In this document: positions 871 to 17,546 of the stretch, one piece after another
How the letters are laid out: every line of letters begins with the position of its first letter
How positions within the stretch are numbered: the stretch's first letter is position 1
Assembly: GCA_964607485.1 (NCBI GenBank)
Contig: CAZSKP010000020.1
Coordinates: 49,134-70,939 of the forward strand
Direction: 5' to 3'
Length of the DNA: 21,806 nt
DNA from: an uncultured bacterium
Lineage (GTDB): Bacteria; Abyssobacteria; SURF-5
Notes under the pieces: model-generated
Database searches by the model: none
The model's input: only the letters and a program-made list of their open reading frames with translations
Told to the model about the DNA's origin: nothing
Made by a program: the position numbers and the translations under genes

Positions 871-910
871 AGAGTAAGTGGAGAGAGGAGCCGGAAAGGA
901 GAGACTAACA

Positions 911-3900
911 ATGAGCACTGCAGGCAAATGTTCAGAATGCGGCGCCGAACTACCTGCAGATCATGGACTTAGAGGTCTGTGCCCGCGCTGCTTGCTCGTG
1001 CTGGGCTTGGGGGTTGACGACACGGCCGACCCGAAAACCATTGGCGCCTACGAGATTGAGCGTCTGCTCGGTCGCGGCGGCATGGGCGTCGTCTACAAGG
1101 CGCGCCAGGTGTCCCTCAACCGCATCGTCGCCCTCAAAATCCTCAACCCAACACTGAGCAGCGATCCCGCTTTTGTCAAGCGATTCCATCGCGAAGCACA
1201 GGCGGTGGCCCGTCTGAACCATCAGAACATCGTCCACATTTACGATATCGGCGAAGAGAACGGGATGCACTTCTTCAGCATGGAATATGTGAAGGGCCGG
1301 CTGCTTAGTGAGATCCTGGACAAGGAGGGATTCCTGAGAGTGGGCCAGGCGGTGGACATCATCTTTCAGGTAGCGAGAGCGCTGAGATACGCCCACTCGA
1401 AGAACATCATACATCGCGATGTCAAGCCGTCCAACATCATCGTCGACCGGCTGAGCAGGGTGAAGGTCATGGACTTCGGGCTGGCGAAGCTCGGCGGCAA
1501 CACGCGGCTCACCAGGACCGACACTGTGCTGGGAACGGTGAAATACATGTCACCCGAGCAGGCGCGCGGAGAGACGGTCGACCATCGGACGGACATCTGG
1601 TCGATGGGGATCGTGCTCTATGAGATGCTCGCGGGCATGACTCCGTTCAAGGCGACGAACGAGGCGGCGCTGATACACAAAATTATCTACGAACCTGTCC
1701 CGGACCTGAATGACCTCAGTCCGGAGACGCCACCGCAACTGCGGGCGATTGTGGCCAAGACGATGGCAAAAGATAAGAATGAACGCTACCAGAGCGTTTC
1801 CGACTTCCTGAAGGACCTGCAGACTCTCAAGGCTCCTCGACCAACAAAAGGCGACACGCTTTTTGAAAAAGCCGGGGGGTATCTCGAGAAACTCATCGCC
1901 TTTTCGCGCAAGAAGGATGTTCGCCGCAAAGTGCTGGTGCCGCTAGCGCTCGCAGCAGTCATTTTTGTGGGATATCTTGCATATTCCAAGTGGTCGGAGC
2001 AAAGAGGCCCAGCCCCCGAGGATATGGTCCTGATTCCCGCCGGCGAATTCATGATGGGAGCTTCTCCGGGCATGGTCCATCAGCATGAGACCCCACAACA
2101 CCGCGTGTTTCTCGATGCTTTCTATATCGACAAATTTCCCGTCACCAATATGCAGTTTCAGAAGTTCGTGGATTCAACGGGCTATGTAACGGATGCAGAG
2201 AAACGGGGATGGTCAAATGCTCCAGAGGAAAAGCGGGCCGACCAGATTAAAGCGAATGGCGCAAACTGGCGCCATCCGCGAGGGCCCGAAAGTGACATAA
2301 AGGACATAATGAACCACCCGGTTGTTCATGTTAGCTGGAATGATGCTCATGCGTACGCCAAGTGGGCCAATAAACGCTTGCCAACTGAGGCGGAATGGGA
2401 GAAGGCGGCAAGGGGCACCGATGGGAGGAAGTACCCCTGGGGCGACGGTGAGCCTGATGGAACCCGGTGCAACTATGCAGACAGGAACACAGCTTTCGGT
2501 TGGAGAGACAGTAGCGTAGATGATGGATATGAATACACCTCTCCAGTCGGACGATACGAGAATGGCAAAAGTCCATATGGTATATACGATATGGCGGGCA
2601 ACGTGTGGGAATGGTGCTCTGACTGGTACGATAAGGATTACTTCAGCAAAAGCCCTAAAGATAACCCGAAGGGTCCTGCGAACGGCCAGCATCGCGTGAT
2701 CCGGGGAGGCGGGTCGTGGCACGACGGCGCCGATTATATGCGATCAACAAACCGTGGTCCACGCCAACCAGCATTCGTGAGTTCCGACCAAGGCTTTCGG
2801 TGCGCCAAGGGTGTGCCGGGAGCGAAAGTGACCGAGGTTGCGGCTAACTTTGACGACGGATTGCCCGCCGGATGGGCTCTCTATGGGACAGCCGCCGTCG
2901 AAAACGGACAGATAGTCTTGACTCCCAATCTACACAACCAGGCTGGAAGTATATTCTATAATACTCCCGTTCCTCATTGTTCACATTTCGAGGTTTCATT
3001 CGATTTCGAGATTGTAGGATTTGCCGATGGATTTGCGTTCGCATGGGTCCCAGGACCTGAGTTCATCGGCGGGGACGGAGCAGATCTTGGCTATGAAACA
3101 TTGCAGGGGTATGCCGTGGAGTTTGATGTGTATTGTGACCGAAACTACGACCCACCCCGTTCTCATATTGCGTTGATCAAGGATGATGTTCGCCGGCATC
3201 TGGCGTCTTCAATGGACTTCCCCACTCTGAACAATTCAGGCAAGTTCTCCTGTAATATCGTTTTTCTGAATTCAACAATACGCGTATACTTGTCAAATCC
3301 GCAGGCAGGACTGGCGGAAAAGAAATTGGTGCTCGAACACACGATTTCCGACTACGAACCATTTACGGCATATCTTGGTCTCACGGGGGCGACGGGCGGA
3401 GTATCCGCGAGGCACGTAATAGACAACGTGAGAATGTCTGCCCCATTCCAAGCGACTCGAAAGCGGCTGAAAGGGGAAAAGAAAAGTGGCGAACGAAAGA
3501 TGACTTCCCAAAAAACCGAAACCATGGACACGCATGCACACCCCCAGTTAGCCCGGGCCAAGAGATTGGCAGAGGAGGAAAAGTGGGATGAAGCCTTGAC
3601 CGCCTATACCCAGTTGGCCGACCAGCATCCGGAAAACATTGAGCTGCAAAAAGCAGTGGTATTATTTCTGCATAACGAATATCGAATCGGCAAGAAACTT
3701 GAATGGGCGTCAGCTCCGTTTCGCTCATTTTCCAAAACAATGAGGCGATATGCTGAGAGAGTCATTAAGCTGGATCCCTCCCAGCGCGATATGTATTATT
3801 TTGGCCTTCGCGGATATGAATATGCTGGCCTGCCCATTTCCGAAACAGTCAAAAGGCAATTGGAAAACAACTATGCACGGACTCGTCAAAGATTCCCCGA

Positions 3901-5125
3901 TTGGCAGGGAGTTTTCGGGATGTACACCGAGGCCTTTTCAAATCTTGGTCTTTACGACCTTGCCCTTGGGGTTACCGACGATTGGGAAAATCAGTCGGGA
4001 GAAAGCGCCGGTGTCCTGGTCAACAGGTCGAGAGCGCTTGACGGCCTCGGCAGGCATGAGGAAGCCTATCAATTGGCCCTAAGTGCTTTCAACAAATTCC
4101 CGGATGATGCCTGGTTGGCCGCGCATCTGGCCGATATGCAGTTAGCCCGCGGAAATAAATCACGGGCAATAGAACTCTATAAGAAAGCCGATGAAATCTC
4201 TCCGAACGACCATTTCAAGCAAAAAATTCGGGAGATTAGCCGGCAACAAACAGGCACCTCACCCCCGGAAAAGACTGCGTTATCAAATGAAGACCATGCC
4301 GCCCCCGGCGCAGACGATGACATCGCATTCTGGACACAACCTTCAAAGGAACTATTGGAGAAACTAGAAGAGCCTGTGAGTTTTGAATTCGCGAATGAGC
4401 AAGCAGGAGATGTGATAAGGTTTCTCAGTTCAATAAAGCAGATCACCATTGAGGCAGAACCAAGACTGAAGAGAAGGCGGGTTACGATTCGAGTGGACCA
4501 GAAACGACTCGGTGAGGCGATTGAATTAATAGCGCGCATGCTCCACAGCAAAATTCAGTTAAGATCGCACTTTATATACATAGGGGAGGCCCTCTATCAT
4601 CCGGATATCTCAACCTTTTCACCCGGATTAAGGGCTGAGTTAAGGCAACCTTGCACTTTTGACTTCGAGGAGCAAGAACTCTCAAAGATACTTCTTCTAT
4701 TGAGCAGCATAACACACGGCATCGATTTCTCCACTAGTGAAGAAATCGGCCGAAGGAAAACCAGTGTGACAGCCGTTAAATTATCAGCTTTTGAGTCTCT
4801 GCAAATATTGTGCAGTCAGCATGACCTGACGTTAGAGCAAGACGGAGAAAATTCCTTGATACTCCAAGGTGGAACAAATTCCATTAAAGCCCCAAGAAAA
4901 TTGACTGAATCCCAAGCTGAAGAATGGCCTGAGATCAAGGTTGTATCCGTATTCGACCCGAAACAATCCGGCAACTACGTATGTATTATTGAAATGAATG
5001 GACGGAGAAGATTCGTCAAGGAAGGCGACGAATTTTCTGATTTGCGAGTCCTGCGAATTGATGGAACAGAGAATTGCATTACCGCATCGCATCCCTCTTT
5101 GGGAGAGAGGACGTTTTGTGAGTAG
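911..5125 (+). CDS. Multidomain transmembrane Ser/Thr protein kinase: Zn-ribbon, Hanks kinase, TM, FGE-sulfatase (SUMF1-like), L-type lectin, TPR, 2x STN/secretin-N0-like, PilP/GspC-like beta domain
   Basis: ATG 911 follows AAGGAG (the ORF track starts at GTG 878). CSEC..CPRC 929-991. Kinase motifs LGRGGMGVVY, VALK, HRDVKPSN, DFG, GTVKYMSPE, DIWSMG. TM VLVPLALAAVIFVGYLAY ~1931-1984. FGE motifs IPAGEFMMG, PVVHVSWNDA, RLPTEAEWEKAARG, DMAGNVWEW, GFRC ~2015-2809. Lectin motifs LTP..QAGSIFY, ADGFAF, AVEFD, GLTGATGG ~2846-3430. TPR-like helices ~3540-4240. STN-like repeats ~4364-4585 and ~4640-4866. C-terminal RFVKEGDEFSDLRVLRID. Confidence 0.92.
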   Translation: MSTAGKCSECGAELPADHGLRGLCPRCLLVLGLGVDDTADPKTIGAYEIERLLGRGGMGVVYKARQVSLNRIVALKILNPTLSSDPAFVKRFHREAQAVARLNHQNIVHIYDIGEENGMHFFSMEYVKGRLLSEILDKEGFLRVGQAVDIIFQVARALRYAHSKNIIHRDVKPSNIIVDRLSRVKVMDFGLAKLGGNTRLTRTDTVLGTVKYMSPEQARGETVDHRTDIWSMGIVLYEMLAGMTPFKATNEAALIHKIIYEPVPDLNDLSPETPPQLRAIVAKTMAKDKNERYQSVSDFLKDLQTLKAPRPTKGDTLFEKAGGYLEKLIAFSRKKDVRRKVLVPLALAAVIFVGYLAYSKWSEQRGPAPEDMVLIPAGEFMMGASPGMVHQHETPQHRVFLDAFYIDKFPVTNMQFQKFVDSTGYVTDAEKRGWSNAPEEKRADQIKANGANWRHPRGPESDIKDIMNHPVVHVSWNDAHAYAKWANKRLPTEAEWEKAARGTDGRKYPWGDGEPDGTRCNYADRNTAFGWRDSSVDDGYEYTSPVGRYENGKSPYGIYDMAGNVWEWCSDWYDKDYFSKSPKDNPKGPANGQHRVIRGGGSWHDGADYMRSTNRGPRQPAFVSSDQGFRCAKGVPGAKVTEVAANFDDGLPAGWALYGTAAVENGQIVLTPNLHNQAGSIFYNTPVPHCSHFEVSFDFEIVGFADGFAFAWVPGPEFIGGDGADLGYETLQGYAVEFDVYCDRNYDPPRSHIALIKDDVRRHLASSMDFPTLNNSGKFSCNIVFLNSTIRVYLSNPQAGLAEKKLVLEHTISDYEPFTAYLGLTGATGGVSARHVIDNVRMSAPFQATRKRLKGEKKSGERKMTSQKTETMDTHAHPQLARAKRLAEEEKWDEALTAYTQLADQHPENIELQKAVVLFLHNEYRIGKKLEWASAPFRSFSKTMRRYAERVIKLDPSQRDMYYFGLRGYEYAGLPISETVKRQLENNYARTRQRFPDWQGVFGMYTEAFSNLGLYDLALGVTDDWENQSGESAGVLVNRSRALDGLGRHEEAYQLALSAFNKFPDDAWLAAHLADMQLARGNKSRAIELYKKADEISPNDHFKQKIREISRQQTGTSPPEKTALSNEDHAAPGADDDIAFWTQPSKELLEKLEEPVSFEFANEQAGDVIRFLSSIKQITIEAEPRLKRRRVTIRVDQKRLGEAIELIARMLHSKIQLRSHFIYIGEALYHPDISTFSPGLRAELRQPCTFDFEEQELSKILLLLSSITHGIDFSTSEEIGRRKTSVTAVKLSAFESLQILCSQHDLTLEQDGENSLILQGGTNSIKAPRKLTESQAEEWPEIKVVSVFDPKQSGNYVCIIEMNGRRRFVKEGDEFSDLRVLRIDGTENCITASHPSLGERTFCE

Positions 5126-5563
5126 GGTAGACTGAGACTGACCACCCAAAACGAGTTCGCATGGACAAATAATCTCAGGTTAAACGGCCGCGGATAGTTG
5201 TCAATGGTTTCACTTTTCCACTCCCTCTGAAAGTGTAATTATCACCCATCCTATCGTTCAAATATCGCCCTTGGCGAGTGCATAATACGTTTTCAAATCT
5301 GCATTCTTAAATCGCTTGCTTTTATGCTGTTCCAAGTCCTCAGCCGCCGAGGACTATCTTTTGACCGGAGCGAACACACGAGACACAGAAAAGGACTTCA
5401 CGCACAAGGAAGATTGTGCTGGTTTTTTGTGCCGGTTTGCAGTCAGCTCTGTGCTTTTCATGTCATCCAGTGGCAAAACCAAGCCCTTTTTGGAGCATCA
5501 CATCTTCATGTCCAGTCTACTGTTGGCAGGGATTGTCTTTCAATGGCCGTATCTTTAGGATAG

Positions 5564-5607
5564 CACTCGTAATGAGGGGGTCAGGGGTTCGAGTCCCCTC
5601 TCCAGCT
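5564..5607 (+). pseudogene. 3' half of tRNA-Thr(CGT); probable attachment (att) site scar of an integrative element
   Basis: Anticodon loop CTCGTAA 5566-5572, 3' anticodon strand TGAGG, variable GGGTC, perfect T-arm AGGGG-TTCGAGT-CCCCT 5583-5599, acceptor 3' strand CTCCAGC 5600-5606 plus discriminator T. No GCTGGAG 5' acceptor strand or D-arm upstream. The anticodon stem pairs for only 2 bp. Confidence 0.85.
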
Positions 5608-5614
5608 CTTTGCT

Positions 5615-5648
5615 ATCGGGGCACTCTTATGAGTGCCCTGATCTTTTT
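5615..5648 (+). terminator. Intrinsic (rho-independent) terminator downstream of the tRNA fragment
   Basis: 12-bp stem ATCGGGGCACTC / GAGTGCCCTGAT (one G-U), TTAT loop, followed by CTTTTT. Confidence 0.85.
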
Positions 5649-5667
5649 GTGGGGCAAATGGTGGCAA
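5649..5667 (+). repeat. Tandem G(G/T)GGCAA direct repeat, possible integrase arm-type sites
   Basis: GTGGGGCAAA TGGTGGCAA directly after the terminator. Related motifs are GTGGCAAA at 5470-5477 and TGGTGGCAAA at 17632-17641. Confidence 0.35.
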
Positions 5668-5984
5668 GTTGTGCTGGTTCTCAATGGCTGATACGACCAT
5701 ACTACCCCACCCAGTTCTCTCTGTAAACTTGGTGCTGAAGGACTGCCAAACTTGTCCAGATATTCGATGTCACAGAAGAGAACGACTTCCATTTTTTCGG
5801 CATGAAGGTAGCAGGACTCCCGACGGAACCCATAGAGAGACGTCTGACCATTGTGGAAGCAGTGAGAATTACCGCTCCAACCGGGGTGGGGAATAGAGCG
5901 ACAGAGTATCTTTCTTCGTCGAATGTGGCCGGTTCATTCTGCGTTCCAAATCTCCTGGTAAAGCGCGAGTTTCTAGAAAAATCC

Positions 5985-6013
5985 TTGTATTTAAAGCAAT
6001 TGCATGATATAAT
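5985..6013 (+). promoter_or_regulatory. Sigma70 promoter with extended -10 for the five-gene signalling cluster
   Basis: TTGTAT (5985-5990), 17-nt spacer, TG at 6005-6006, TATAAT (6008-6013), in an AT-rich context. Confidence 0.8.
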
Positions 6014-6119
6014 TTTTTCCTCATTGATACGACCCGGCCCATTGTCGATAGGCCTTAGCGTGCCAGATTGATGATATCCTCCCTTCAGAAAGAGGAGGTC
6101 GGGAGAGGCTTTGGGGATT

Positions 6120-8762
6120 ATGGGAATGCAACGCTCGCACCGGCGGATTTTTCGGGTTCCCCACCTGCTGAGAGTCCTGGTCGTTCACCTCATGTTTCAA
6201 ATCCTTGTTACATCCATCCCTTTCCAGACAACTGCAGAGGAACTTGCCTCCGATAGAAAGCCGGGCCCGCCCACGCAAAGCTCTGCTTTCGTGTACGTAA
6301 TCGACAAATCCTCGAGCATGCTCAGGACTTTTGACGCGCTGAAGGAAACCCTGAGAAAGGCAATCGGGAAATGCGGTTCCGACGACAGCGTCTCCATATT
6401 GGTTTTCGGCGACAACGTGACGTTATTAGCCAGTTACAAATCCATGAATGAATTCAAGAAAGACGCCGTGCTGAAGCTTCTGGATTCCGTCTCTGCCGAT
6501 GCACTCTACACAAATTTGGGACTGGCAATCGATCAGGGGACCCAATGTCTGTATGATCGCTTCTGTGAGGAACAGGCGGAAGACTATACCTTGATACTCG
6601 TAACCGATGGCAAGGATCATCCCTCGCCCAATTACGTTCGGAAGAGAACCATTGAAGATTCCATCACTCAGTTTCCCGATTTTCTTCCGGGGCAGCAGTG
6701 GTCGCTCCGTTACATTGCTTTGGAGGGCCAAATAGACCCGCAACTGTTCGAGCTCGTGAGAAAATATGACGGGAGCTTCTTTGATGTGGAAAAGATCGCT
6801 CATCTGGCGAGCATGGACGACGGCGAAGTGATCGAGAGCATAATCGGTGATCCCGAACAATGGGAGAGTCTCCACGCCTTCATAATCGACCATTTGGGTG
6901 AAGTGCAGATAAAGCGGGAGGGTGAGGAACTGTGGTTCTCAATTTCGAAGGACGGCCCGCAAAGAATTTTCCCTCACGATGAAGTAAGGATATCCTCTGG
7001 ATCGAAAGCCGTCATTAGTTTTGGACCAATTGGGAAAGTTGGCATGGAGGAGAATAGCCAGGCGAGTCTCGAGACCCTGCAGGCCCTGCCTGTGAGAAGG
7101 TCCAGCGCGGTTGAGATTACATTGGACAGGGGAACGCTCTGGAACGCTGTAACCGCGTCGCCGGGTTCATCACTCACTTACGAAGTACTGACTCCCATCG
7201 CTCTCACGGGTCTGAGAGGAACTGTTGTCAGGGTGGCTTTCGACGACGCAACGCTTAACCAAAACATTGCAGTGTTGGAAGGAATAGCAGAGATCAGTTC
7301 GCTGGAGGAAGAGCCTGTATTCGAAGAGTTTGACCTTGAGTTGGGATACTATTCGGCAATATCTCCGGGGGAAAAGCCTTCCCCGCCCAAACCAATTCCT
7401 GAAGAAATTCTTCGTGAATGGGAATTATGGAAGGAGATCCTGCGGGGAGAAGCTTCCCTTTCGCAACTGGCACTCGGAGCGAGACAATTTCTCACGGCCC
7501 GTCTGGATAAGACGAAGATGATCCTGGGTTCGTTGGAATCGGGCAAGGTCTGCACTGATAAGCTGACGCTGAAGCTCGAAGGCCATCTGCCGGTCGAGGG
7601 AATGGAAATTCGAGCAGTCCCAGACATTTCGTTGCCACACGGCGTTTCGTGCAGCGCAAGTGTGAATCTGAACCACATGATGAAAGAAGCAGAAATCGTG
7701 GTCACCGCCGAAGTGAACGAAGGCGTTCACCTTCCGGATGGTAAGACATGGGATGGCGTGTTGGCTCTTGGAAGTTCGGTCAAGAACGTCTCCTTTTCGA
7801 ATAATCCCATCCCGTTGAGGCTGTTTCGTGAAAAGGAGAAGAAGATTGGGAGCGGAGCGGGTCGCCATTCCTTTTTGGGAGAGGTTTCGGTTTGGGAGTG
7901 GTTGATGGCGAATTGGAAATGGATGGGTTTTCTCGTTGCGATCCCGGTGTATTTTTTCTTTTTGGTACTCGCCGAGCGGCAAAGGCGGTATGGAGCCCAT
8001 GCCAGGAGGTTCATACCCCTGGAGGGGTGGCTCCTCGTGCTGAGCTCACCCAGGGACTCCGACATCGAGAATATCGACCTCAAGGCTCTCAGCCTGAAAT
8101 CAAAGAAGTCTGTCTTGATTGTCGGCAGACATCCGGCTTGCGATATCCGCATCTCCCACTCCACTGTCGATAAGAGCCACGCCCGGCTGCGTCCCAGCCG
8201 AGAGGGCGTTCCTGCTTCGGTGTATATAGACGGTTTGGAGCTTAACGATGTTAAGGTCAACGACTTCATTACCAACAAAGAGGTTGTGCTTAAGGATAGA
8301 GATATTGTTGACATCGGAGCCTTTAAATTTATGTACACAACCTCTTACCTCAAACAGGTCGTAGTCCATTACAATGACGGAGATACCAGATATGGGACCC
8401 TCCTGACGTGGAACATGGAAGACGAAGGCTTCGTGCTTCGTCCTATGAGCGAACCTCCTGACGACAACCCTTGTTATATCCCATTCGCCGACCTAAAAGG
8501 AGTCTTCTTCGTCAAGGATTTTGACAAGGAAATCGCACGAAAGATCAAATCCTCAGATATCTACACGAAGAAACATCATATCGTCGTGGAATTCCCGGAC
8601 GGCGAGACAATCGAGGGGTATACCGTGCATGACTATGATCCAAAGGCTCCCCGGTTCTTCCTGGTTCCAGAGCTGAAGAAGGATGAAGAAGGGAACAACG
8701 TGTACATCCTTGTGGAGAGAAGCTCTGCGAAAAAAATCAACATTGTGGCCGAGCCGGCCTGA
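6120..8762 (+). CDS. Single-pass membrane protein, paralog A: signal, vWA, FecR domain, beta-rich domain, TM, FHA, tandem Sm-like (DUF6982-like) domains
   Basis: Start is uncertain (TTG 6111, ATG 6120 or ATG 6126). Basic then hydrophobic N-terminus. vWA MIDAS DKSSS 6303-6317, YTNLGLAI, LILVTDG. FecR motifs GEVQIKR, SGSKAVISFG, LDRGTLW, YEVLTPIALTGLRGTV, AVLEG. TM ~7914-7973. FHA IVGRHPACDIRI..VDKSHARL. C-terminal VVVHYNDG..YGTL, LKGVFFVKDF, VEFPDGETIEG, FFLVP..GNN. Confidence 0.85.
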   Translation: MGMQRSHRRIFRVPHLLRVLVVHLMFQILVTSIPFQTTAEELASDRKPGPPTQSSAFVYVIDKSSSMLRTFDALKETLRKAIGKCGSDDSVSILVFGDNVTLLASYKSMNEFKKDAVLKLLDSVSADALYTNLGLAIDQGTQCLYDRFCEEQAEDYTLILVTDGKDHPSPNYVRKRTIEDSITQFPDFLPGQQWSLRYIALEGQIDPQLFELVRKYDGSFFDVEKIAHLASMDDGEVIESIIGDPEQWESLHAFIIDHLGEVQIKREGEELWFSISKDGPQRIFPHDEVRISSGSKAVISFGPIGKVGMEENSQASLETLQALPVRRSSAVEITLDRGTLWNAVTASPGSSLTYEVLTPIALTGLRGTVVRVAFDDATLNQNIAVLEGIAEISSLEEEPVFEEFDLELGYYSAISPGEKPSPPKPIPEEILREWELWKEILRGEASLSQLALGARQFLTARLDKTKMILGSLESGKVCTDKLTLKLEGHLPVEGMEIRAVPDISLPHGVSCSASVNLNHMMKEAEIVVTAEVNEGVHLPDGKTWDGVLALGSSVKNVSFSNNPIPLRLFREKEKKIGSGAGRHSFLGEVSVWEWLMANWKWMGFLVAIPVYFFFLVLAERQRRYGAHARRFIPLEGWLLVLSSPRDSDIENIDLKALSLKSKKSVLIVGRHPACDIRISHSTVDKSHARLRPSREGVPASVYIDGLELNDVKVNDFITNKEVVLKDRDIVDIGAFKFMYTTSYLKQVVVHYNDGDTRYGTLLTWNMEDEGFVLRPMSEPPDDNPCYIPFADLKGVFFVKDFDKEIARKIKSSDIYTKKHHIVVEFPDGETIEGYTVHDYDPKAPRFFLVPELKKDEEGNNVYILVERSSAKKINIVAEPA

Positions 8763-8968
8763 TGCGCGGATCCGGGGAAAAGAAGATGGTCTCAATATGG
8801 GCGATCGATAGCCGGTTCACGTCATGGCCTTGATCCTCGCTGCCATGGGAAATCCCAAGGGCGGAACTGCACATTTGTCTGGGTTGACGCCGTGGAGCAC
8901 ATCGTCGATTTCTGCAAATGGCATCCTCGCGTCATTAGGTGGCAGGAGCGTAACGGTCGGAAGGGGAC

Positions 8969-11632
8969 ATGTATTCTGGGCGGCCATACAGCTTTATGAC
9001 TGTCGTTGTGAGTGTTTTCACAGCGTGCCTGATTTTTCTCGCTGCTTTCCCCTTGATTCCGTCTGCAACATTCGGGGAAGAACTTGACCCTCCAACGGAA
9101 TTTGGACAAGCACGAGGCGGTTCAGCCATCGTGTATCTAATCGATAAGTCATCGAGCATGCTTTGGGTATTTGATGAGTTAAAGGGGATCGTAAAGAAAG
9201 CCATAGACCAACGCGGACCCGAGGACAGCATTTGCATCATCGTCTTTGGCGATTCCGTAACTACGTTGGCCTCGTACAAACACTTGGACGACTCAAACAA
9301 GGCAGCTCTGTCGGGGCTTCTTGATTCCGTCTATGCGGATGCCCTGTACACAAATTTGGAGCTTGCGATCGATCGAGGGATCCAACATCTGCACACTTAT
9401 TTCTGTGATCATATGGCGGAAAATTATACACTGGTTCTCATAACCGACGGCAAGAACCATCCGCCGCCCGGACATATTCGCGAGCGATCCCTGGAAGAGG
9501 CAGTGACTCAGTTCTCGGATTTTCTTCCCGGAAAGCAGTGGTCGCTGGGTTACGTTGTTCTAGAGGGTCGGCTCGATCCGGAATTGCTGACCCTTCTGGG
9601 GAAATACGAGGGCAGAATCCTCGATGTCGATGAAATCGCTCAAACATCCGAGGCAACCGGCGACGAAGTCCTAGCGAGCATCATTGAGCATCCGGAAGAC
9701 TGGATATCATTTGAGGCCGTACTCGTGGACCATACTGGCGAGGTGAACGTGAGGGGGCCGGAAGGGGACCGGTGGGTTGCAATTCCGAAAGGGGCCACTC
9801 CGGAATTGCTCGCTGGAGATAGCGTGGCCGTATCTGCTGGCTCAAAGGCGGTCATCAGCTTCGGGTCGCTTGGGAGAGTGGGACTTGAGGGAACCACTGA
9901 GATTAATCTGAACAGGCTGAAGAAGATGCCTCTGGAACAATCGAGCGTCATCCAACTCAGGTTGGAGAACGGCACTCTCTGGAATACCGTAAAGGGTCCC
10001 ATGGCTGGCGAGGTCACTTACGAAGTGCTAACTCCTATCGCCTTGACAGGTGTAAGAGGCACGGTTTTCAGGATATCTCTCGACAGCCAAACATTGGAAC
10101 AGACCATCGCGGTCCTTGAAGGAACGGTCGAGACAAGCTCCTCCGAAGAGCGCCCCAGTTTCGAGAGCTTCACTCTGACCGATGGAAACTTTTCAATATT
10201 CTCTTCAGGTGCAAAACCCTCCTCGCCCCTGCCCATACCGAAGGATATGATCCTTCAATGGGAAAGATGGAGGAAAGCCTTACAAAAGAAAGAGCCCCTT
10301 TCGCACATCAATTTTCAAACAGTGCTGATCACACCAGCCGAGGGAAAGCTTGTAATGGGACCGATAAAACCCGGTATGAAGTTCAGCAAAATGGTCCCGC
10401 TCACATTGAGCGAAGAGTACCGTGGGAAAGCGCCTATCTCGGCGAAAGTGGTGATCGACTTGCCCCCGGGAGCCAACATAAAGGTTGACGTCATCGATAA
10501 AGATGATAGCAAACTGGAGAAAAATCTGTCAGTCAATCTCCAGTGCCAACCTTTTCTCAGGTATGCCGGGGCAAAGGAATACAACGGCAAGATCAGGCTC
10601 ATGTGCTCCAGTGACGATGTCAGATTCACCGAGCCGGAAGTGGAACTTCAAATACTTCATTCCCCTCCCAGATTTGGCCTCTGGGGAGGCGACTATTCGA
10701 CTCTCACAAAGAATCTTATCCTGGCAGCCGCTGTGTTGTCAACGCTGTTCATCATCTTCGTGATATGGAAGAAGAGGGATGCGTTTCTTAAACTCAAAAA
10801 GTGGGAGAGGAGAGTTATCGACTATATCCGACAGAAGGTCATCAAGACGAAGTTCATTCACTTATTCCGAGCCAGACCCACAGGACAACTCGTGTTGCGA
10901 GGTTCGTCACCGGACGGGCATCGAAAACTGTTCAACTTGGCTGAAATATCTCTTCACAGCAACGAAGTCGTCCTCGGCATCGGCTCGGACCCGTCGAATG
11001 CAATTTCCCTTTCTCACTCTTCGGTCCGTCCGTTCCACTGCACCATCTGGGCTGGTCGAAGAAGAAATCCGACAAGAGTTTACATCAACGCTCTTGCAGG
11101 GGGACATTTGGCCGTAAATGGCGACCAGATTGCGCACACTCAGGAGGTCAAAGACAAAGATGTGATCGCAATCGGAGACTATGAATTCGAATTCGTTGAC
11201 ACTCAGCTCTATCGCCAGGTCGAGGTCCATATGAACAATGGGACAGTCTATGAAAGCACGCTGGAATACTGGGATCTTAACCATAGCGTCTTCTATATCA
11301 GACAGACCCTGCAAGATCACGATTGCACACTTGCTGTTCCGTTTATGGATGTCTCTCACATACATTTTTATCAGGATGAGAGCGCGCGCGATATAGGCGT
11401 CCTGCCACACCCGTTACGTGCTTACCGAGCAAAGCGCAAGAGTCTCGCTAAAGTCACCCTCAGAAGCGGACAGAAGCTGAAGGGATTCAAATATGGGAAA
11501 TATCGCCATGAGGACTCGCCCGGAATCTTTCTTCTGCCGCCTTCTTCTGAAGAATCAAGGATTCAATACACGTATATACCGAAAACCAGCATCGAAACTT
11601 TCGTGATTGTGGACAGTTATCGAGCCCATTGA
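8969..11632 (+). CDS. Single-pass membrane protein, paralog B: signal, vWA, FecR domain, beta-rich domain, TM, degenerate FHA, tandem Sm-like domains
   Basis: Same architecture as paralog A. DKSSS 9143-9157, YTNLELAI, LVLITDG. YEVLTPIALTGVRGTV. TM LILAAAVLSTLFIIFVIW 10715-10768. FHA-like LGIGSDPSNAISL..VRPFHCTI..VNG..KDKDVIAIG. Sm-like VEVHMNNGTVYESTLEYWD and AKVTLRSGQKLKG. Purine-rich SD GGAAGGGGA upstream. Confidence 0.85.
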   Translation: MYSGRPYSFMTVVVSVFTACLIFLAAFPLIPSATFGEELDPPTEFGQARGGSAIVYLIDKSSSMLWVFDELKGIVKKAIDQRGPEDSICIIVFGDSVTTLASYKHLDDSNKAALSGLLDSVYADALYTNLELAIDRGIQHLHTYFCDHMAENYTLVLITDGKNHPPPGHIRERSLEEAVTQFSDFLPGKQWSLGYVVLEGRLDPELLTLLGKYEGRILDVDEIAQTSEATGDEVLASIIEHPEDWISFEAVLVDHTGEVNVRGPEGDRWVAIPKGATPELLAGDSVAVSAGSKAVISFGSLGRVGLEGTTEINLNRLKKMPLEQSSVIQLRLENGTLWNTVKGPMAGEVTYEVLTPIALTGVRGTVFRISLDSQTLEQTIAVLEGTVETSSSEERPSFESFTLTDGNFSIFSSGAKPSSPLPIPKDMILQWERWRKALQKKEPLSHINFQTVLITPAEGKLVMGPIKPGMKFSKMVPLTLSEEYRGKAPISAKVVIDLPPGANIKVDVIDKDDSKLEKNLSVNLQCQPFLRYAGAKEYNGKIRLMCSSDDVRFTEPEVELQILHSPPRFGLWGGDYSTLTKNLILAAAVLSTLFIIFVIWKKRDAFLKLKKWERRVIDYIRQKVIKTKFIHLFRARPTGQLVLRGSSPDGHRKLFNLAEISLHSNEVVLGIGSDPSNAISLSHSSVRPFHCTIWAGRRRNPTRVYINALAGGHLAVNGDQIAHTQEVKDKDVIAIGDYEFEFVDTQLYRQVEVHMNNGTVYESTLEYWDLNHSVFYIRQTLQDHDCTLAVPFMDVSHIHFYQDESARDIGVLPHPLRAYRAKRKSLAKVTLRSGQKLKGFKYGKYRHEDSPGIFLLPPSSEESRIQYTYIPKTSIETFVIVDSYRAH

Positions 11633-14523
11633 TGTTCATGCGACCAAATCCAACAAAAGTTGCACGAAGCACGGAACACGGGATGACCGAAAACACTCAA
11701 GAGTCGAAAGTCGGCCGATTTTCCGCCGTGCGAAAGCATTACGGGGTCGTGATTGCCGTTTCCTCCTGGCTACTGATCGTCGTGCTCGGGCTTTTTTTTC
11801 ACGGGCCCTTCATGGAAATGGAAAACAAGCTCCTTGATATCCGGATGCGTCTTCCCCATAAGGCGAAAGCCTGCGATCAAATTGTCTATGTTGATATCGA
11901 CGATAAAAGCATAGCTCTTTTTGGAAGGTGGCCCTGGAACCGCTCGCTGATGGCCGAAATTCTTCAAGCGCTCCGACGTGCGAATATTGTGGGAATGTTT
12001 CCCGATTTTCTCATCGCCGAAGAGACAACGGTCAGGGATGACCTCGCCCTTGTTCATGCGGTAGAGGACAGCGGAAACATATTCTTGGGCGCGGCGTTCC
12101 AGCTCCAACAAGCCGATGAACATCCAACACAATCAGAGCCCGTCGACGGGATTCTGAAAGGATTCCGTTATGACCTTAGAGTCAACACCGATAGCAAAGC
12201 AATGAGAGCCACAAGGGCGCTCGCTTCCCTTCCTTCGCTTATGGCGGTGGTTGCTGGAACTGGACACATCAGTTTCGTGCCTGATGAAGACGGAGTAGCC
12301 AGAAATCTGCCCCTCTTCGTTGACCTGGAAGGTCGGTATTTCCCTTCGATCGACATCGAAGTGGCCCGTTGGCTCCTTCAAGTCGAGCGAGAAAAAATCG
12401 AGATCGTTCCGGGAAGATATGTGGTTCTGAGGGAAGCGCTGACGCCCGGCCTTACTGAAAGGAAGGATGTCTTCATCCCGGTGGACGCACAAATGCGGAT
12501 TCTTATCAACTACGCAGGCCGGTGGGGCGAAGCCTTCAAACACTATCCGATCCACGCGATACTCAGAGATCTGCTTTCTGACGATCCACTTGCGAGAGAA
12601 AAGGCGAAGAGCTTGCTTGACGGCAAGTTTATTGTTCTATCCGCCGCTTTCACGGGCGGCGCGGATATGGGGCCAACTCCGCTCCAGCCTCTTGTGCCCC
12701 TGTCGGAAATCCATGGGCATGTCATAAGCTCAATCGTGAACCAACAATTTCTGAGACACGTTCCGTCTTCGGCGACCATGCTCATCGCTCTCCCACTCTG
12801 CCTGGTGTTGGGTCTGTTATCGCCAAGGTTGAAGACCTTGCGCCTTTCAGGTCTCAGCGCCTTGATGCTCGCTCTATGGGTAGTAACGGCATTTGTTCTG
12901 TTCGCAGCCGCTGGATACGTTGTTGATATCGTTTGGCCGGGCGCGGCCATAGTGCTCTCGTACGCGGGCTGCGCCGGACGCATGCACTGGAAGACGGAAC
13001 GTGAGCGAGCATCACTCCGGAGGGCCTTCTCCCAATATGTTTCGCCCGACGTGCTTTCTCAAATACTCGTTGAGCCGCGCAGGCTCGTCCTCGGGGGCGA
13101 ACGAGTCAACTTGTCGATTCTGGTGCTGGTCTTCGAAAAATTCGAACGATTCTCTGAAAATGCAGAACCGGAGGAGATCATCGAACTGCTCACGGCTTTC
13201 TACGATAAGACGTGCGAATGGATCTTGAAACACGGGGGTACCATCGATAAGTTCACGAAAGACGGGCTGATTGCATTCTTCGGCGCTCCGTTGAAGCAGG
13301 ACAAACATTTGGAATCGGCGGTGAGGGCCGCCCTGTCGATCAGGCGGGAAGTGGCCGAGCTGATTACGTCAAGGAGCCGGCGAGGAGAAAAAACGGTCGG
13401 CGTGAAAATGGCGATACACTCGGGCTTCGCCACCGTGGGAAACATCGGGTCTCCGAAGAGGATGGACTATACGGTAATCGGAAGGAACGTGAACCTGTGC
13501 ATTGCAATGGCCGAGTCCGCTACAGACGGCCAAATACTCGTGACACGCAAGACTCACCAAAGCGTGGAAAGCCTCGTTGACGCGAAAGAATGCGGAGAAG
13601 TCAGACTTTCCGCATATCCGAAACCCTTTTTCATTTTTGACATCATCGGTCTGAAGGATGCATTGCAACATGTCCCCGTGCCGACGATCATCCCAACCGT
13701 CGAAATGCGCGAAAAGAAATTCCTGGGTCCCTACACGTTGACCGAGAAACTTGGAGTGGGCAATACGGGAACGGTCTACAAGGGATACGATGAACAATTG
13801 GACCGCCAAGTCGCTATCAAGGTGCTTTCCCCAGGTTTGCAGAAAGACAGGCTGCAACTAATCGCAGAAGAGGCAAAGACGCTCGCGAAGTTGAGTCATC
13901 CCAATGTTGTACAGGTTTACTATGCGGGAGAAGAGGATGGGATCGGATTTCTGGTGATGGAATTGGTGGATGGAGGCAACCTGAGAGAGTTGATAAACAC
14001 CGAGGGGGCTCTCTCGGTGAGCCATGCGCTCGACATTATCACCCAGACCTCCCGCGGACTGAACGCTGCACACAAGCGGGGAATAACTCACCGCGATATC
14101 AAGCCCGCCAATCTCCTGCTGAACAATTACGACATTGTCAAGGTCACAGACTTCGGACTTGCCGGCGAAAAGATTTTCAGACAAAGAGCAGAACGACGCA
14201 TAGCCGGAACATTCCAGTACATGTCGCCCGAACAGGCCCAAGGACTCAAGACAGACTGCAGAAGCGACATATACGCCCTGGGGATTACGTTCTTTCACTT
14301 ACTCGCTGGAGAGGTTCCCTTCAAATCGGACAGCATCGCCGGTCTGATATGGCATCATGCCGAGTCCCAGCTCCCCATTGAACCCCTCAAGAAACAGGGG
14401 GTTCCAGACTCAGTAATCAGGCTGGTTCAAAAGATGACGGCAAAGCTTCCCGGCGAGAGATTCGCCAACTACTTGGAATTACTCGAGGAGCTGGATAAAC
14501 TAGAGCTTCAAATTGACGGATAG
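11632..14523 (+). CDS. CHASE2 sensor, 3 TM, degenerate class III nucleotide cyclase, Ser/Thr kinase fusion
   Basis: ATG 11632 overlaps the upstream stop (TGATG); ATG 11683 is an alternative start. N-terminal TM. CHASE2 motifs IVYVDIDDKSI..GRWPWNRS, PDEDGVARNLPL, GKFIVL, EIHGHVISSI. Three hydrophobic helices. AFSQYVSPDV linker. Cyclase fold GGTIDKF..DGLIAFFGAP, VGNIGS..RMDYTVIG. Intact kinase motifs LGVGNTGTVY, VAIK, HRDIKPAN, DFG, GTFQYMSPE. Confidence 0.92.
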   Translation: MFMRPNPTKVARSTEHGMTENTQESKVGRFSAVRKHYGVVIAVSSWLLIVVLGLFFHGPFMEMENKLLDIRMRLPHKAKACDQIVYVDIDDKSIALFGRWPWNRSLMAEILQALRRANIVGMFPDFLIAEETTVRDDLALVHAVEDSGNIFLGAAFQLQQADEHPTQSEPVDGILKGFRYDLRVNTDSKAMRATRALASLPSLMAVVAGTGHISFVPDEDGVARNLPLFVDLEGRYFPSIDIEVARWLLQVEREKIEIVPGRYVVLREALTPGLTERKDVFIPVDAQMRILINYAGRWGEAFKHYPIHAILRDLLSDDPLAREKAKSLLDGKFIVLSAAFTGGADMGPTPLQPLVPLSEIHGHVISSIVNQQFLRHVPSSATMLIALPLCLVLGLLSPRLKTLRLSGLSALMLALWVVTAFVLFAAAGYVVDIVWPGAAIVLSYAGCAGRMHWKTERERASLRRAFSQYVSPDVLSQILVEPRRLVLGGERVNLSILVLVFEKFERFSENAEPEEIIELLTAFYDKTCEWILKHGGTIDKFTKDGLIAFFGAPLKQDKHLESAVRAALSIRREVAELITSRSRRGEKTVGVKMAIHSGFATVGNIGSPKRMDYTVIGRNVNLCIAMAESATDGQILVTRKTHQSVESLVDAKECGEVRLSAYPKPFFIFDIIGLKDALQHVPVPTIIPTVEMREKKFLGPYTLTEKLGVGNTGTVYKGYDEQLDRQVAIKVLSPGLQKDRLQLIAEEAKTLAKLSHPNVVQVYYAGEEDGIGFLVMELVDGGNLRELINTEGALSVSHALDIITQTSRGLNAAHKRGITHRDIKPANLLLNNYDIVKVTDFGLAGEKIFRQRAERRIAGTFQYMSPEQAQGLKTDCRSDIYALGITFFHLLAGEVPFKSDSIAGLIWHHAESQLPIEPLKKQGVPDSVIRLVQKMTAKLPGERFANYLELLEELDKLELQIDG

Positions 14524-15941: not shown

Positions 15942-17546
15942 ATGGCTGTGCTTAGAATTCTAGCTCCCGCTGAACTTCAGGACGATTTTCAGATTGGCCA
16001 GAGGATATTCACGCTGGGCCGTTCCCCCGACAACACTCTTCAGATAGACCGACCCACCATAGCTCGCGTGCATGCGTCGATCATATGTGAGGGAAAAAGA
16101 TACCTTCTGATCGATCACTCCAGCAGACACGGAACATTTGTGGACGGCGATAGAATTGACAGGAGAGTGCTATCCTCCGGCAACCGAATCGCACTGGGCA
16201 AGCACGCCGAATTGCTATTTTCAATCCCAAGTCCCGAAGCCGACACCCGGGTCGGCCAGCGGGTCGTCGTGACGAAGGACCAGGCGAAGGACCCCATTTC
16301 AGACATTCAGAAGAGAATGACGCTGGAAGAGGCCGGATTTGACTACAAACAGGGCATTCCTGCCAAGACATTTGAGGCTGAATCAAGGGGAAGATATCTC
16401 TCGACAATCTATCAGGTCAATCAGACCATAACCGAAATCTTTGACCTCAGTGAACTGGCCAACAGGGTTCTCGATCTGATACTCCAGATCTTTGCGGTTG
16501 ATAGAACCGCCATCATCCTGTATGACCAGGAGGCACAACATCCATATCCCATCGCGTTCAAAGCCAGAAAGGAGATCCACGGCTCCAGCCCAATCAACAT
16601 CAGCCAGACAATTATCAGAAAAGCGATCTTCGAGGGAAGTGGGATCTTGGCGAGCGATACATATATTGACGACCGCTTCAAAGACGTCTCCAGCATCATG
16701 CGTAAGCAGATTCGGTCAGTAATGTGTGTGCCGCTCCACACAAAGGGGAAGATTCTGGGGGCGATATACGCCGACGCTCTCGAAGTCCCAGGGGGATTCT
16801 CTGAGGAAGACCTTCGTCTGTTGTTTGCCGTTGGAGGAGCGCTTGCAAACTCGATTGAGAACGCGTGGCTGGTTGACATAATAAAGAAGGAGGAGCGGAA
16901 ACTGAGCACCCTCGAGCGATATCTTCCCTCAGTTGTCCTCGAGCACTTGCTCCAGCAGCAGGATCCAACAAAGCTGGGGGGAAAAACCGTTTCCATCTCC
17001 ATTTTGTTCGCGGACATTCGGGGTTTTACCCTCCTGACGGAACGAACCAGTTCAGCGGACGTTGTCTTTCTTCTGAACGACTATTTCACGTCGATGTCGG
17101 AGATTGTTTTCGAATATGGTGGCACGCTGGGCGAATACATTGGTGACGAAATCATGGCCTACTTCGGAGCGCCAATTGAATGTGAGGATCATGCCTCGCG
17201 AACGATTTCTGTGGCCACGAAAATGATGGAGAGGATGAGATTGCTCAAGAATCACAGAAGGGAGGCTGGATTGCCTGTCTTCGACATCGGAATCGGAATC
17301 GCCACGGGAGCCGTCATAGCGGGCAACATTGGCTCGGCCAAGCAAATGAAGTACACGGTCATCGGGAATACGGTCAATCTGGCCAAGAGATTGTGCGATT
17401 ACGCGCAACCAGGGCAAATACTGATCGACGCGGATGCGTATCACGTCGCCGAAAAACCGTCGAACGTTCGTTTTCTCGAGAGAGTAAATCTCAAGGGAAT
17501 CTCAAGGCCGGTGGCAGTTTACGTGGTTGAGCAGAACATCGACTAA
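15942..17546 (+). CDS. FHA-GAF-class III nucleotide cyclase (predicted guanylate-cyclase-like specificity)
   Basis: FHA FTLGRSPDN..IARVHASI..DHSSRHGTFVDG. GAF IRSVMCVPL..GKILGAIYAD..FSEEDLRLL. Cyclase SILFADIRGFT, GEYIGDEIMAYFGAP, GNIGS..KYTVIGNTVNLAKRL with both metal Asp residues and the Asn/Arg pair intact. Confidence 0.92.
   Translation: MAVLRILAPAELQDDFQIGQRIFTLGRSPDNTLQIDRPTIARVHASIICEGKRYLLIDHSSRHGTFVDGDRIDRRVLSSGNRIALGKHAELLFSIPSPEADTRVGQRVVVTKDQAKDPISDIQKRMTLEEAGFDYKQGIPAKTFEAESRGRYLSTIYQVNQTITEIFDLSELANRVLDLILQIFAVDRTAIILYDQEAQHPYPIAFKARKEIHGSSPINISQTIIRKAIFEGSGILASDTYIDDRFKDVSSIMRKQIRSVMCVPLHTKGKILGAIYADALEVPGGFSEEDLRLLFAVGGALANSIENAWLVDIIKKEERKLSTLERYLPSVVLEHLLQQQDPTKLGGKTVSISILFADIRGFTLLTERTSSADVVFLLNDYFTSMSEIVFEYGGTLGEYIGDEIMAYFGAPIECEDHASRTISVATKMMERMRLLKNHRREAGLPVFDIGIGIATGAVIAGNIGSAKQMKYTVIGNTVNLAKRLCDYAQPGQILIDADAYHVAEKPSNVRFLERVNLKGISRPVAVYVVEQNID

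Follow-up and report, generated by a model that had tools for sequence, protein, structure and literature searches.

Why should a membrane receptor with a complete Ser/Thr kinase carry a nucleotide cyclase domain that lacks much of its catalytic machinery? The question is raised by a gene in a stretch of 21,806 nucleotides (nt), the whole of which is called the window here, from an uncultured bacterium of the GTDB lineage Abyssobacteria (SURF-5; GenBank assembly GCA_964607485.1, contig CAZSKP010000020.1, forward-strand positions 49,134 to 70,939). The gene encodes, in this order, a CHASE2 sensor, membrane helices, a class III cyclase homology domain (CHD) and a Hanks-type Ser/Thr kinase. Our preferred answer, to which we assign a probability of about 0.55, is that the CHD is a conserved pseudo-enzyme that would synthesize neither cAMP nor cGMP and has been kept as the dimeric transducer already used by CHASE2 cyclases. 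A preliminary description of the window had placed a pseudo-cyclase between CHASE2 and an intact kinase; that arrangement is supported here and holds throughout the protein family.

Residues of the cyclase domain in the window and in its relatives

The receptor-kinase gene and its parts lie at the following positions (aa, amino acids).

11629..14523, + strand: receptor-kinase gene (CHASE2, transmembrane helices, pseudo-cyclase, Ser/Thr kinase)
11773..12816, + strand: CHASE2 extracytoplasmic sensor, aa 49-396 (Pfam PF05226, 142.5 bits)
12994..13110, + strand: segment preceding the cyclase domain, aa 456-494, with the motif F-S-x-Y-V-S-P, which resembles a cyclase-transducer element (CTE)
13111..13644, + strand: pseudo-cyclase of the class III CHD fold, aa 495-672 (from Pfam and PDB matches and the residues tabulated below)
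13129..13137, + strand: Val501-Phe502-Glu503, at the positions of the metal Asp and the phosphate-binding Arg, with one residue between them
13249..13263, + strand: Lys541, Lys544 and Asp545, respectively the base-specifying position, the Gly replacement and the second metal Asp
13432..13506, + strand: dimerization arm and former transition-state motif, aa 602-626
13645..13731, + strand: linker between pseudo-cyclase and kinase, about aa 673-701, of low model confidence
13732..14463, + strand: Hanks-type Ser/Thr kinase, aa 702-945 (Pfam PF00069, 173.8 bits)

The open reading frame (ORF) comprises 964 aa when read from a TTG start at 11629, where its first 4 nt coincide with the end of the preceding gene, or 946 aa when read from the ATG at 11683, which is the start of the database copy P0002, 18 codons later. 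With its CHASE2, Guanylate_cyc and Pkinase domains, the frame is otherwise intact, as had been stated before. In an AlphaFold2 (AF2) model, predicted helices flank CHASE2, one before it (aa 21-56) and three after it (within aa 355-467). The protein has the parts of a CHASE2 receptor, namely CHASE2, flanking predicted helices and a cytoplasmic output, in a topology that is itself a prediction. The full-length model had a mean predicted local distance difference test (pLDDT) score of 57.1 and a predicted template modeling (pTM) score of 0.36 with a 14-row alignment; it served only for secondary structure and per-domain confidence, the pLDDT being about 70-86 over aa 491-600 and about 70-94 in the kinase. 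The central domain matched Guanylate_cyc (PF00211) over aa 495-661 with 47.7 bits, against a cut-off of 21.9. Its best PDB sequence matches include CyaB (3r5g, E 1.7e-29) and Cya2 (2w01, E 2e-26), and the AF2 model has the strand and helix order expected of a CHD. The kinase motifs are complete (G-loop, K731, E748, HRD 821-823, K825, N828, DFG 841-843, SPE 866-868), and their catalytic columns are invariant in seven aligned sequences with identity down to 30%. By these motifs the kinase domain is a full member of the Hanks family and is predicted to be active.

The cyclase domain was mapped, via the 2w01 and 3r5g alignments, onto the eight key residues of Cya2, which are D448, R450, E488, D492, G562, N569, R573 and K608 (PMC6005667, excerpt). 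In the same order, the window protein has Val501, Glu503, Lys541, Asp545, Thr615, Asn622, Ala626 and, depending on the alignment, Ser661 or Ala662. Four of the eight are gone: one metal ligand, both phosphate contacts and the transition-state Arg. At the first of the two metal-binding Asp positions stands Val501 (GTC, 13129-13131), a substitution apparent against both the cyclase consensus and the neighboring cyclase; the second is kept as Asp545, preceded by Lys544 in place of Gly in the sequence FTKDG. The transition-state Asn is present (Asn622), and four residues past it the Arg is replaced by Ala626 (GCA, 13504-13506). Changing an Arg codon to GCA takes two base changes, which excludes a single-base error at this position. 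Base-specifying pairs consist of Lys with Asp or Thr for ATP and of Glu with Cys, Ser or Gly for GTP (PMC6005667, excerpt), and the window protein retains a pair of the former kind, Lys541 (13249-13251) and the Thr615 of a Tyr-Thr. The preliminary description had read these substitutions and retained residues correctly. Two losses are added here: the phosphate-binding Arg, equivalent to R450 of Cya2, is Glu503, and the gamma-phosphate Lys, equivalent to K608, is Ser661 or Ala662. Judged by its residues, the protein is a class III cyclase homologue that would fall outside the catalytic members of the class.

A homologue search covering 5.8 billion proteins recovered eleven clusters that share the three-domain make-up, with 59 to 72% identity across the cyclase-kinase part; their sources are labeled as Hydrogenedentota or Lindowbacteria metagenome-assembled genomes (MAGs) or carry no label. 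A further member, P0015, came from a Zixibacteria MAG. The family comparison comprises 13 sequences, and the 14-row alignment adds the distant P0014. In all 13, the first metal Asp is Val or Ile, the phosphate-binding Arg is Glu or Asp, Lys544 stands in place of Gly, and the gamma-phosphate Lys is missing, leaving neither basic phosphate residue in any member. The second metal Asp and the Thr of the base pair are each kept in 12 of 13. The base Lys541 position holds Lys in 10, Arg in 1 and Thr in 2; the Asn622 position holds Asn in 10, Asp in 2 and Ser in 1; and the transition-state position holds Arg in 9, His in 3 and Ala in the window protein only. A 14th sequence, from genome G008, has the same substitution pattern. 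Within the GTDB phylum of the window, the gene is carried by 5 of 11 species genomes (its own genome counted), and direct reading of the phylum genomes gives the same residue patterns.

Whether homologues retain the Asp and Arg had been proposed as a check on the degenerate domain. The outcome is split: the substitutions at the first Asp and the Gly are shared by all 13 sequences, so that loss of the metal site is ancestral to the family, and the change from Arg to Ala is private to the window. Chance, sequencing error and lineage-specific decay were considered and rejected, because the substitutions reappear throughout the 13 family sequences and in the genomes of four relatives.

Of the 13 family genes, 12 have an uninterrupted reading frame. 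In the Zixibacteria orthologue the frame is split past the dead domain (region 8181-11702 of locus L010), with CHASE2 and the dead cyclase in one ORF (8585..10702) and the kinase in the next (10638..11702); the split is either a real frameshift or an assembly indel. A pattern scan of genome contigs found one full-length relative, on a Zixibacteria chromosome, the other 79 loci having the kinase part only, and a profile search over 8000 word-sharing candidates did not recover the distant CHASE2-pseudo-cyclase-kinases P0162 and P0224. Three dead-cyclase kinases (P0005, P0006 and P0177) are named 'adenylate cyclase' by their sources. This label is very probably wrong, and labels of this kind would inflate the counts of cAMP enzymes in uncultured phyla.

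Conservation and predicted pairing of the domain

Within the family, mean pairwise identity is 0.567 for CHASE2, 0.533 for the membrane helices, 0.665 for the pseudo-cyclase and 0.679 for the kinase, and it is 0.459 for the linker to the kinase, scored over aa 662-701. The dead domain is about as conserved as the kinase, and its most conserved parts are the transducer segment and the dimerization arm. The segment with F-S-x-Y-V-S-P (aa 456-494) is the most conserved of the whole protein (0.737). This stretch corresponds to the CTE, whose conserved motif in Cya2 is -FGRY- (PMC5995499, excerpt). In the arm, G604, G607, S608, R611, M612 and Y614 do not vary across the 14 aligned rows, and fourteen core and arm residues remain invariant even when a 25%-identical relative is included. 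The columns of the former catalytic residues Lys541, Asn622 and Arg626 have identities of 0.59, 0.59 and 0.50, compared with a domain mean of 0.66. Taken together, the alignment points to a shift of selection away from catalysis and toward keeping the fold, the transducer segment and the arm. Among the family genomes with DNA sequence in the comparison, protein identity is 54-63%, a distance at which synonymous sites would be saturated.

When modeled together, two copies of aa 452-675 were predicted to form a pair, with a median score of 0.73 compared with 0.00 for the best of three controls. Among proteins solved as pairs of a single chain type, 20 of 30 reached the mark set for this score; among those solved as single chains, 1 of 23 did. 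Runs shared at least 91% of contacts, with a partner pLDDT of at least 84. The predicted interface is built from the CTE, helices 506-533, strand 539-547 and the arm (602-625). Its columns are better conserved than the rest (0.82 over 61 positions versus 0.61 over 156, with 0 of 10,000 permutations as extreme; 0.78 versus 0.62 within the core alone), in a comparison that depends on the dimer model and is partly confounded by burial. In a homodimer of identical chains, both composite active sites would be crippled.

The preliminary description had suggested that the domain serves as a dimerization switch or as an ATP- or cAMP-binding switch. The first half fits the conservation of the domain, of its transducer and arm and of the interface columns, with the homodimer itself being a prediction. 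The second half is not supported, as all three triphosphate and metal contacts on one side of the site are gone from every member and Lys541 and Asn622 drift.

The loss of catalytic residues extends beyond this family. Among sampled cyclase proteins without a kinase, nearly all of them CHASE2 cyclases, the canonical Asp, Asp, Asn and Arg were present in 56 of 56 (49 matched as one stretch and 7 as two, with the frameshifted P0015 set aside). Among sampled cyclase domains that share a polypeptide with a Ser/Thr kinase, they were present in 0 of 26. Both sets were drawn by similarity to the window protein and contain near-identical rows. The kinase-linked set was composed as follows.

11 close family members
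2 distant CHASE2-dead-cyclase-kinases (P0162, P0224)
2 proteins of the order kinase-CHASE2-dead-cyclase (P0177, P0245)
3 other dead-cyclase-kinases (P0152, P0043, P0014), one of which follows a 7TMR histidine-kinase/receiver and another of which is flanked by two kinases
8 proteins of the kinase-cyclase-AAA-TPR type

These 26 domains span at least five architectures, and the 15 outside the close family occur in at least four others (P0014, P0043, P0050-P0098, P0152, P0162, P0177, P0224, P0245, P0308). For three rows of the AAA-TPR type the alignment covers only part of the domain, and P0308 differs mainly by an Asp-to-Glu change. The absence of a canonical domain among the 26 suggests a general rule. 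In a quick maximum-likelihood tree, five kinase-linked groups were each supported (89-100 by the Shimodaira-Hasegawa-like approximate likelihood ratio test), on an unresolved polytomy and with long branches. Since the order of the groups is not settled by this tree, a single origin is possible, and a claim of independent origins for the kinase-linked dead domains was dropped.

Neighboring genes, signaling route and alternative explanations

The receptor-kinase gene lies in a co-oriented signaling cluster, whose other members in the window are these.

78-827: ECF-type sigma factor gene
878-5125: gene for a 1415-aa protein with a Cys-rich N terminus (CxxC...CxxC), a Ser/Thr kinase, a membrane helix, an FGE-sulfatase (SUMF1-like) domain, a legume-lectin-like domain and TPR
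6111..8762 and 8969..11632, + strand: paralogous vWA-FecR-TM-FHA-DUF6982 genes, 883 and 887 aa
14569..15909, + strand: soluble Ser/Thr kinase with Clp_N, which follows the receptor kinase in 3 of the 5 loci that could be assessed
15942..17546, + strand: FHA-GAF-cyclase, whose eight catalytic positions read D R E D T N R K, with Glu/Thr as the base pair

The two paralogous proteins have vWA and FecR outside and FHA and DUF6982 inside the membrane. A full gene of this type adjoins the receptor kinase in 5 of 6 loci compared. At the Zixibacteria locus, only a 132-aa DUF6982 ORF, 'partial' according to its source, lies upstream, and a homologue search with it gave no match but itself. For DUF6982, PDB sequence matches were uninformative (best E 0.11), and the protein atlas returned only DUF6982 clusters (scores 0.80-0.82). 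The vWA-FecR-FHA gene also occurs in two phylum genomes that lack the receptor kinase, in one of which no CHASE2 gene is nearby.

The FHA-GAF-cyclase gene had been described as encoding an intact cyclase. It has all eight catalytic residues, but its base-specifying position holds Glu and not Lys. Its best PDB match is the guanylyl cyclase Cya2; the product may be cGMP, or the specificity may be mixed. The gene lies downstream of or near the receptor kinase in 3 of the 5 loci assessable on that side; in the sixth, the contig stops just past the receptor-kinase gene. Orthologues with 56 to 66% identity occur in 4 of the 5 phylum genomes with the receptor kinase, the fifth genome being 77% complete. 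The 6 genomes without the receptor kinase have 0 orthologues and contain only a paralogue of 31 to 37% identity. The orthologues in G008 and G010 (loci L006 and L009) have the same catalytic residues as the window copy.

At the far end of the cluster, the gene for the 1415-aa kinase-FGE-lectin-TPR protein directly follows the sigma factor gene. It is succeeded by a gap of about 1 kb (5126-6110) with no ORF of at least 100 aa, Rfam match or tRNA; Rfam and tRNA scans of the whole window gave no matches.

These observations can be joined in a model, in which signal flow and read-out are drawn from the established behavior of CHASE2 cyclases, Hanks kinases and FHA domains. An ancestral CHASE2 cyclase would have acquired a C-terminal Hanks kinase, and its cyclase domain would have shed catalysis and stayed as a dimeric transducer. 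A signal at the extracytoplasmic CHASE2 domain would shift the last membrane helix, and the movement would pass through the cyclase-transducer segment to a head-to-tail dimer of dead cyclase domains. In the cell, this dimer would hold or re-orient the two C-terminal kinase domains, which by their proximity would autophosphorylate in trans. The output would be phospho-Ser/Thr instead of a cyclic nucleotide. FHA domains of the co-inherited neighbors, namely the vWA-FecR-FHA-DUF6982 proteins and the FHA-GAF cyclase, would then read the phosphorylation, and the FHA-GAF cyclase would supply the actual second messenger.

Several points weigh against this reading, in addition to the model dependence of the interface comparison and the similarity-based sampling already described. 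The homodimer score may echo solved cyclase dimers, as 3r5g and 2w01 are close relatives, and the prediction used a 14-row alignment built for this analysis. Between pseudo-cyclase and kinase the AF2 pLDDT falls to about 26-43, and together with the variability of the linker (0.46) this makes rigid mechanical coupling unlikely and leaves a proximity or scaffold effect. P0276 is a CHASE2 kinase with no detectable cyclase domain; its existence indicates that the domain is dispensable for merely coupling CHASE2 to a kinase. Three residues of the former active site, Val/Ile501, Glu/Asp503 and Lys544, are fixed in 13 of 13 family sequences, which suggests a specific function of the pocket beyond a pure scaffold. 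They may close the old site by a salt bridge or form a new ligand pocket. Finally, the strict co-occurrence with a true cyclase may stem from a direct interaction of the two cyclase-type domains instead of a phosphorylation relay.

The last two points each have an explanation of their own. The interface pocket could bind ATP, GTP, cAMP, cGMP (perhaps the product of the neighbor) or another small molecule and thereby switch the kinase. The invariance of Lys544, Glu/Asp503 and Val/Ile501 implies that the former active-site pocket is under some constraint, the window protein keeps Lys541, Thr615, Asn622 and Asp545, and degenerate second sites of heterodimeric cyclases have been discussed as regulatory nucleotide or drug sites (PMC6005667, excerpt). 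We nevertheless consider ligand gating unlikely: the first Asp, the phosphate Arg and the gamma-phosphate Lys are absent from every member, Lys541, Asn622 and Arg626 are changed in 3, 3 and 4 of 13 sequences with conservation no higher than that of an average column, and an internal salt bridge between Glu503 and Lys544 could fill the site instead. Direct association with the FHA-GAF cyclase, with the dead domain as a C2-like half that completes one asymmetric site or as an inhibitory partner that would keep the cyclase sequestered until a kinase signal arrives, seems rather improbable. In its favor, most members lose the C1-type first Asp and phosphate Arg and keep the C2-type Lys (10 of 13), Thr (12), Asn (10) and Arg (9), and in 3 of the 5 loci assessed the true cyclase is encoded beside the receptor kinase or close to it, with the phylum co-occurrence of 4 of 5 versus 0 of 6. 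With all eight residues in place, however, the neighbor and its orthologues need no partner. A complementary 'C1-only' partner was looked for in the genome and was not found; all 7 other cyclase domains keep both metal Asp residues, the Asn and the Arg, so none is a complementary C1 or C2 half. Moreover, in genome G010 (P0013-like), where the two genes are directly adjacent, the receptor has Thr, Asp and His for Lys, Asn and Arg, the Arg is lost in the window, and the FHA domain already provides a phospho-dependent link.

The two remaining explanations fit the observations poorly, and both are far less probable. As a neutral relic, the domain would be what is left of a CHASE2 cyclase after the addition of a kinase, in decay and with no function of its own. 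The closest kinase-less relatives, P0269 and P0270, are intact CHASE2 cyclases (31% identity), which suggests CHASE2-cyclase ancestry. A decaying domain would sit poorly, however, with conservation equal to that of the kinase and above that of CHASE2 and the linker, with a frame intact in 12 of 13 genes and broken in Zixibacteria only past the domain, or with fourteen arm and core residues invariant even in a 25%-identical relative; we regard this as very improbable. Weak or unusual residual activity, such as slow turnover of ATP or GTP with one metal Asp or some other chemistry, would draw on Asp545, Asn622, Lys541 and Thr615, all present in the window. It is hardly to be expected of a domain in which half of the eight key residues, including a metal ligand, both phosphate contacts and the transition-state Arg, are missing and whose remaining 'catalytic' positions drift in the family.

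Relation to known systems

If the domain is indeed a dimeric transducer, as we favor, the receptor would be a clean natural system for studying how signals pass through CHASE2 and the CTE, with a phosphorylation read-out that is independent of cyclase chemistry. It would also predict a relay from Ser/Thr phosphorylation to a cyclic nucleotide via the FHA-GAF cyclase. A broader generalization, which we advance tentatively and regard as doubtful, is that kinase-fused class III cyclase domains are as a rule pseudo-cyclases, forming an undescribed 'cyclase-homology regulatory domain' that dimerizes or gates bacterial receptor Ser/Thr kinases and mirrors the kinase-homology domain of animal receptor guanylyl cyclases. 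Under that generalization, the operon would split a receptor cyclase in two: a phosphorylating CHASE2 receptor with a dead transducer, and a separate Glu/Thr FHA-GAF cyclase that docks on phospho-Thr and makes a cyclic nucleotide, possibly cGMP.

Pseudokinases and degenerate GGDEF/EAL domains are established regulators. To our knowledge, dead class III cyclase domains have hardly been discussed. A search of full-text literature, with most subscription journals outside its scope, found no CHASE2-pseudo-cyclase-kinase and no rule that kinase-linked cyclase domains are dead, and a prior description is possible. The principle of a pseudo-enzyme regulator is already known; the CHASE2-pseudo-cyclase-kinase arrangement appears to be new.

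The closest known systems are the CHASE2 class IIIb cyclases, such as Cya2 of Synechocystis PCC 6803 (2w01; PMC6005667 and PMC5995499, excerpts). They share CHASE2, membrane helices, the CTE and a cyclase with its arm, corresponding to the N-terminal two thirds of the window protein, and its nearest kinase-less database relatives have this same architecture. CHASE2 cyclases keep their catalytic residues (all 56 sampled) and end at the cyclase domain, whereas the window protein has lost four of eight and continues into a Hanks kinase. CHASE2 input to a Ser/Thr kinase is likewise found in the cyanobacterial CHASE2-linked Ser/Thr kinases (PMC2877116, excerpt), and a FecR-domain protein is likewise encoded beside a CHASE2 sensor in the Burkholderia BiofilmReg operon (PMC5192318, excerpt). 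The excerpted texts mention no cyclase-fold domain separating sensor from kinase in these proteins, and in Burkholderia the sensor is of the histidine kinase type.

A Hanks kinase and a class III cyclase domain also share a polypeptide in the NCBIfam family TIGR03903, 'TOMM system kinase/cyclase fusion protein' (STK-CHD-AAA-TPR), and all 8 sampled STK-CHD-AAA-TPR proteins have non-canonical catalytic residues. TIGR03903 proteins place the kinase first, are soluble and of the STAND type, and lack CHASE2. The window protein scores 137.5 bits against the family cut-off of 705.75 and has a different domain order, which places it outside TIGR03903.

Incomplete cyclase domains are familiar as heterodimer halves, namely C2 of mammalian adenylyl cyclase and the beta subunit of soluble guanylyl cyclase (PMC6005667, excerpt). 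As in these halves, one chain has lost metal residues, and most family members retain those for the base together with the Asn and the Arg. Unlike them, the window protein has no complementary partner among the 7 other cyclase domains of its genome, its 'kept' residues drift in the family, and its own Arg is gone. The only bacterial non-catalytic cyclase-fold protein found in the full-text literature was AdvA of Acinetobacter baumannii, whose cyclase-like domain binds ZipA (bioRxiv 10.64898/2026.04.03.716176, excerpt). Both are bacterial membrane proteins with a cytoplasmic cyclase-fold domain that lacks catalytic residues and has a non-enzymatic role, a predicted one in the window protein. 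According to the excerpt, AdvA has no dimerization arm, no self-association via its cyclase-like domain and no kinase; the window domain, unlike AdvA, has an invariant arm, matches CyaB at E 1.7e-29 and is predicted to form a canonical dimer.

Animal receptor guanylyl cyclases (GC-A, GC-C) consist of an extracellular sensor, a transmembrane segment, a kinase-homology pseudokinase, a dimerization helix and an active cyclase (described in part in PMC10400071, excerpt). By analogy, the window protein would likewise be a single-chain dimeric receptor with a dead enzyme domain between its sensor and a live enzyme of another class. Unlike in GC-A and GC-C, the cyclase is the dead partner and the kinase the live one, the sensor is CHASE2, and common descent of the arrangement is unsupported; the likeness is one of design, with the roles of cyclase and kinase exchanged.

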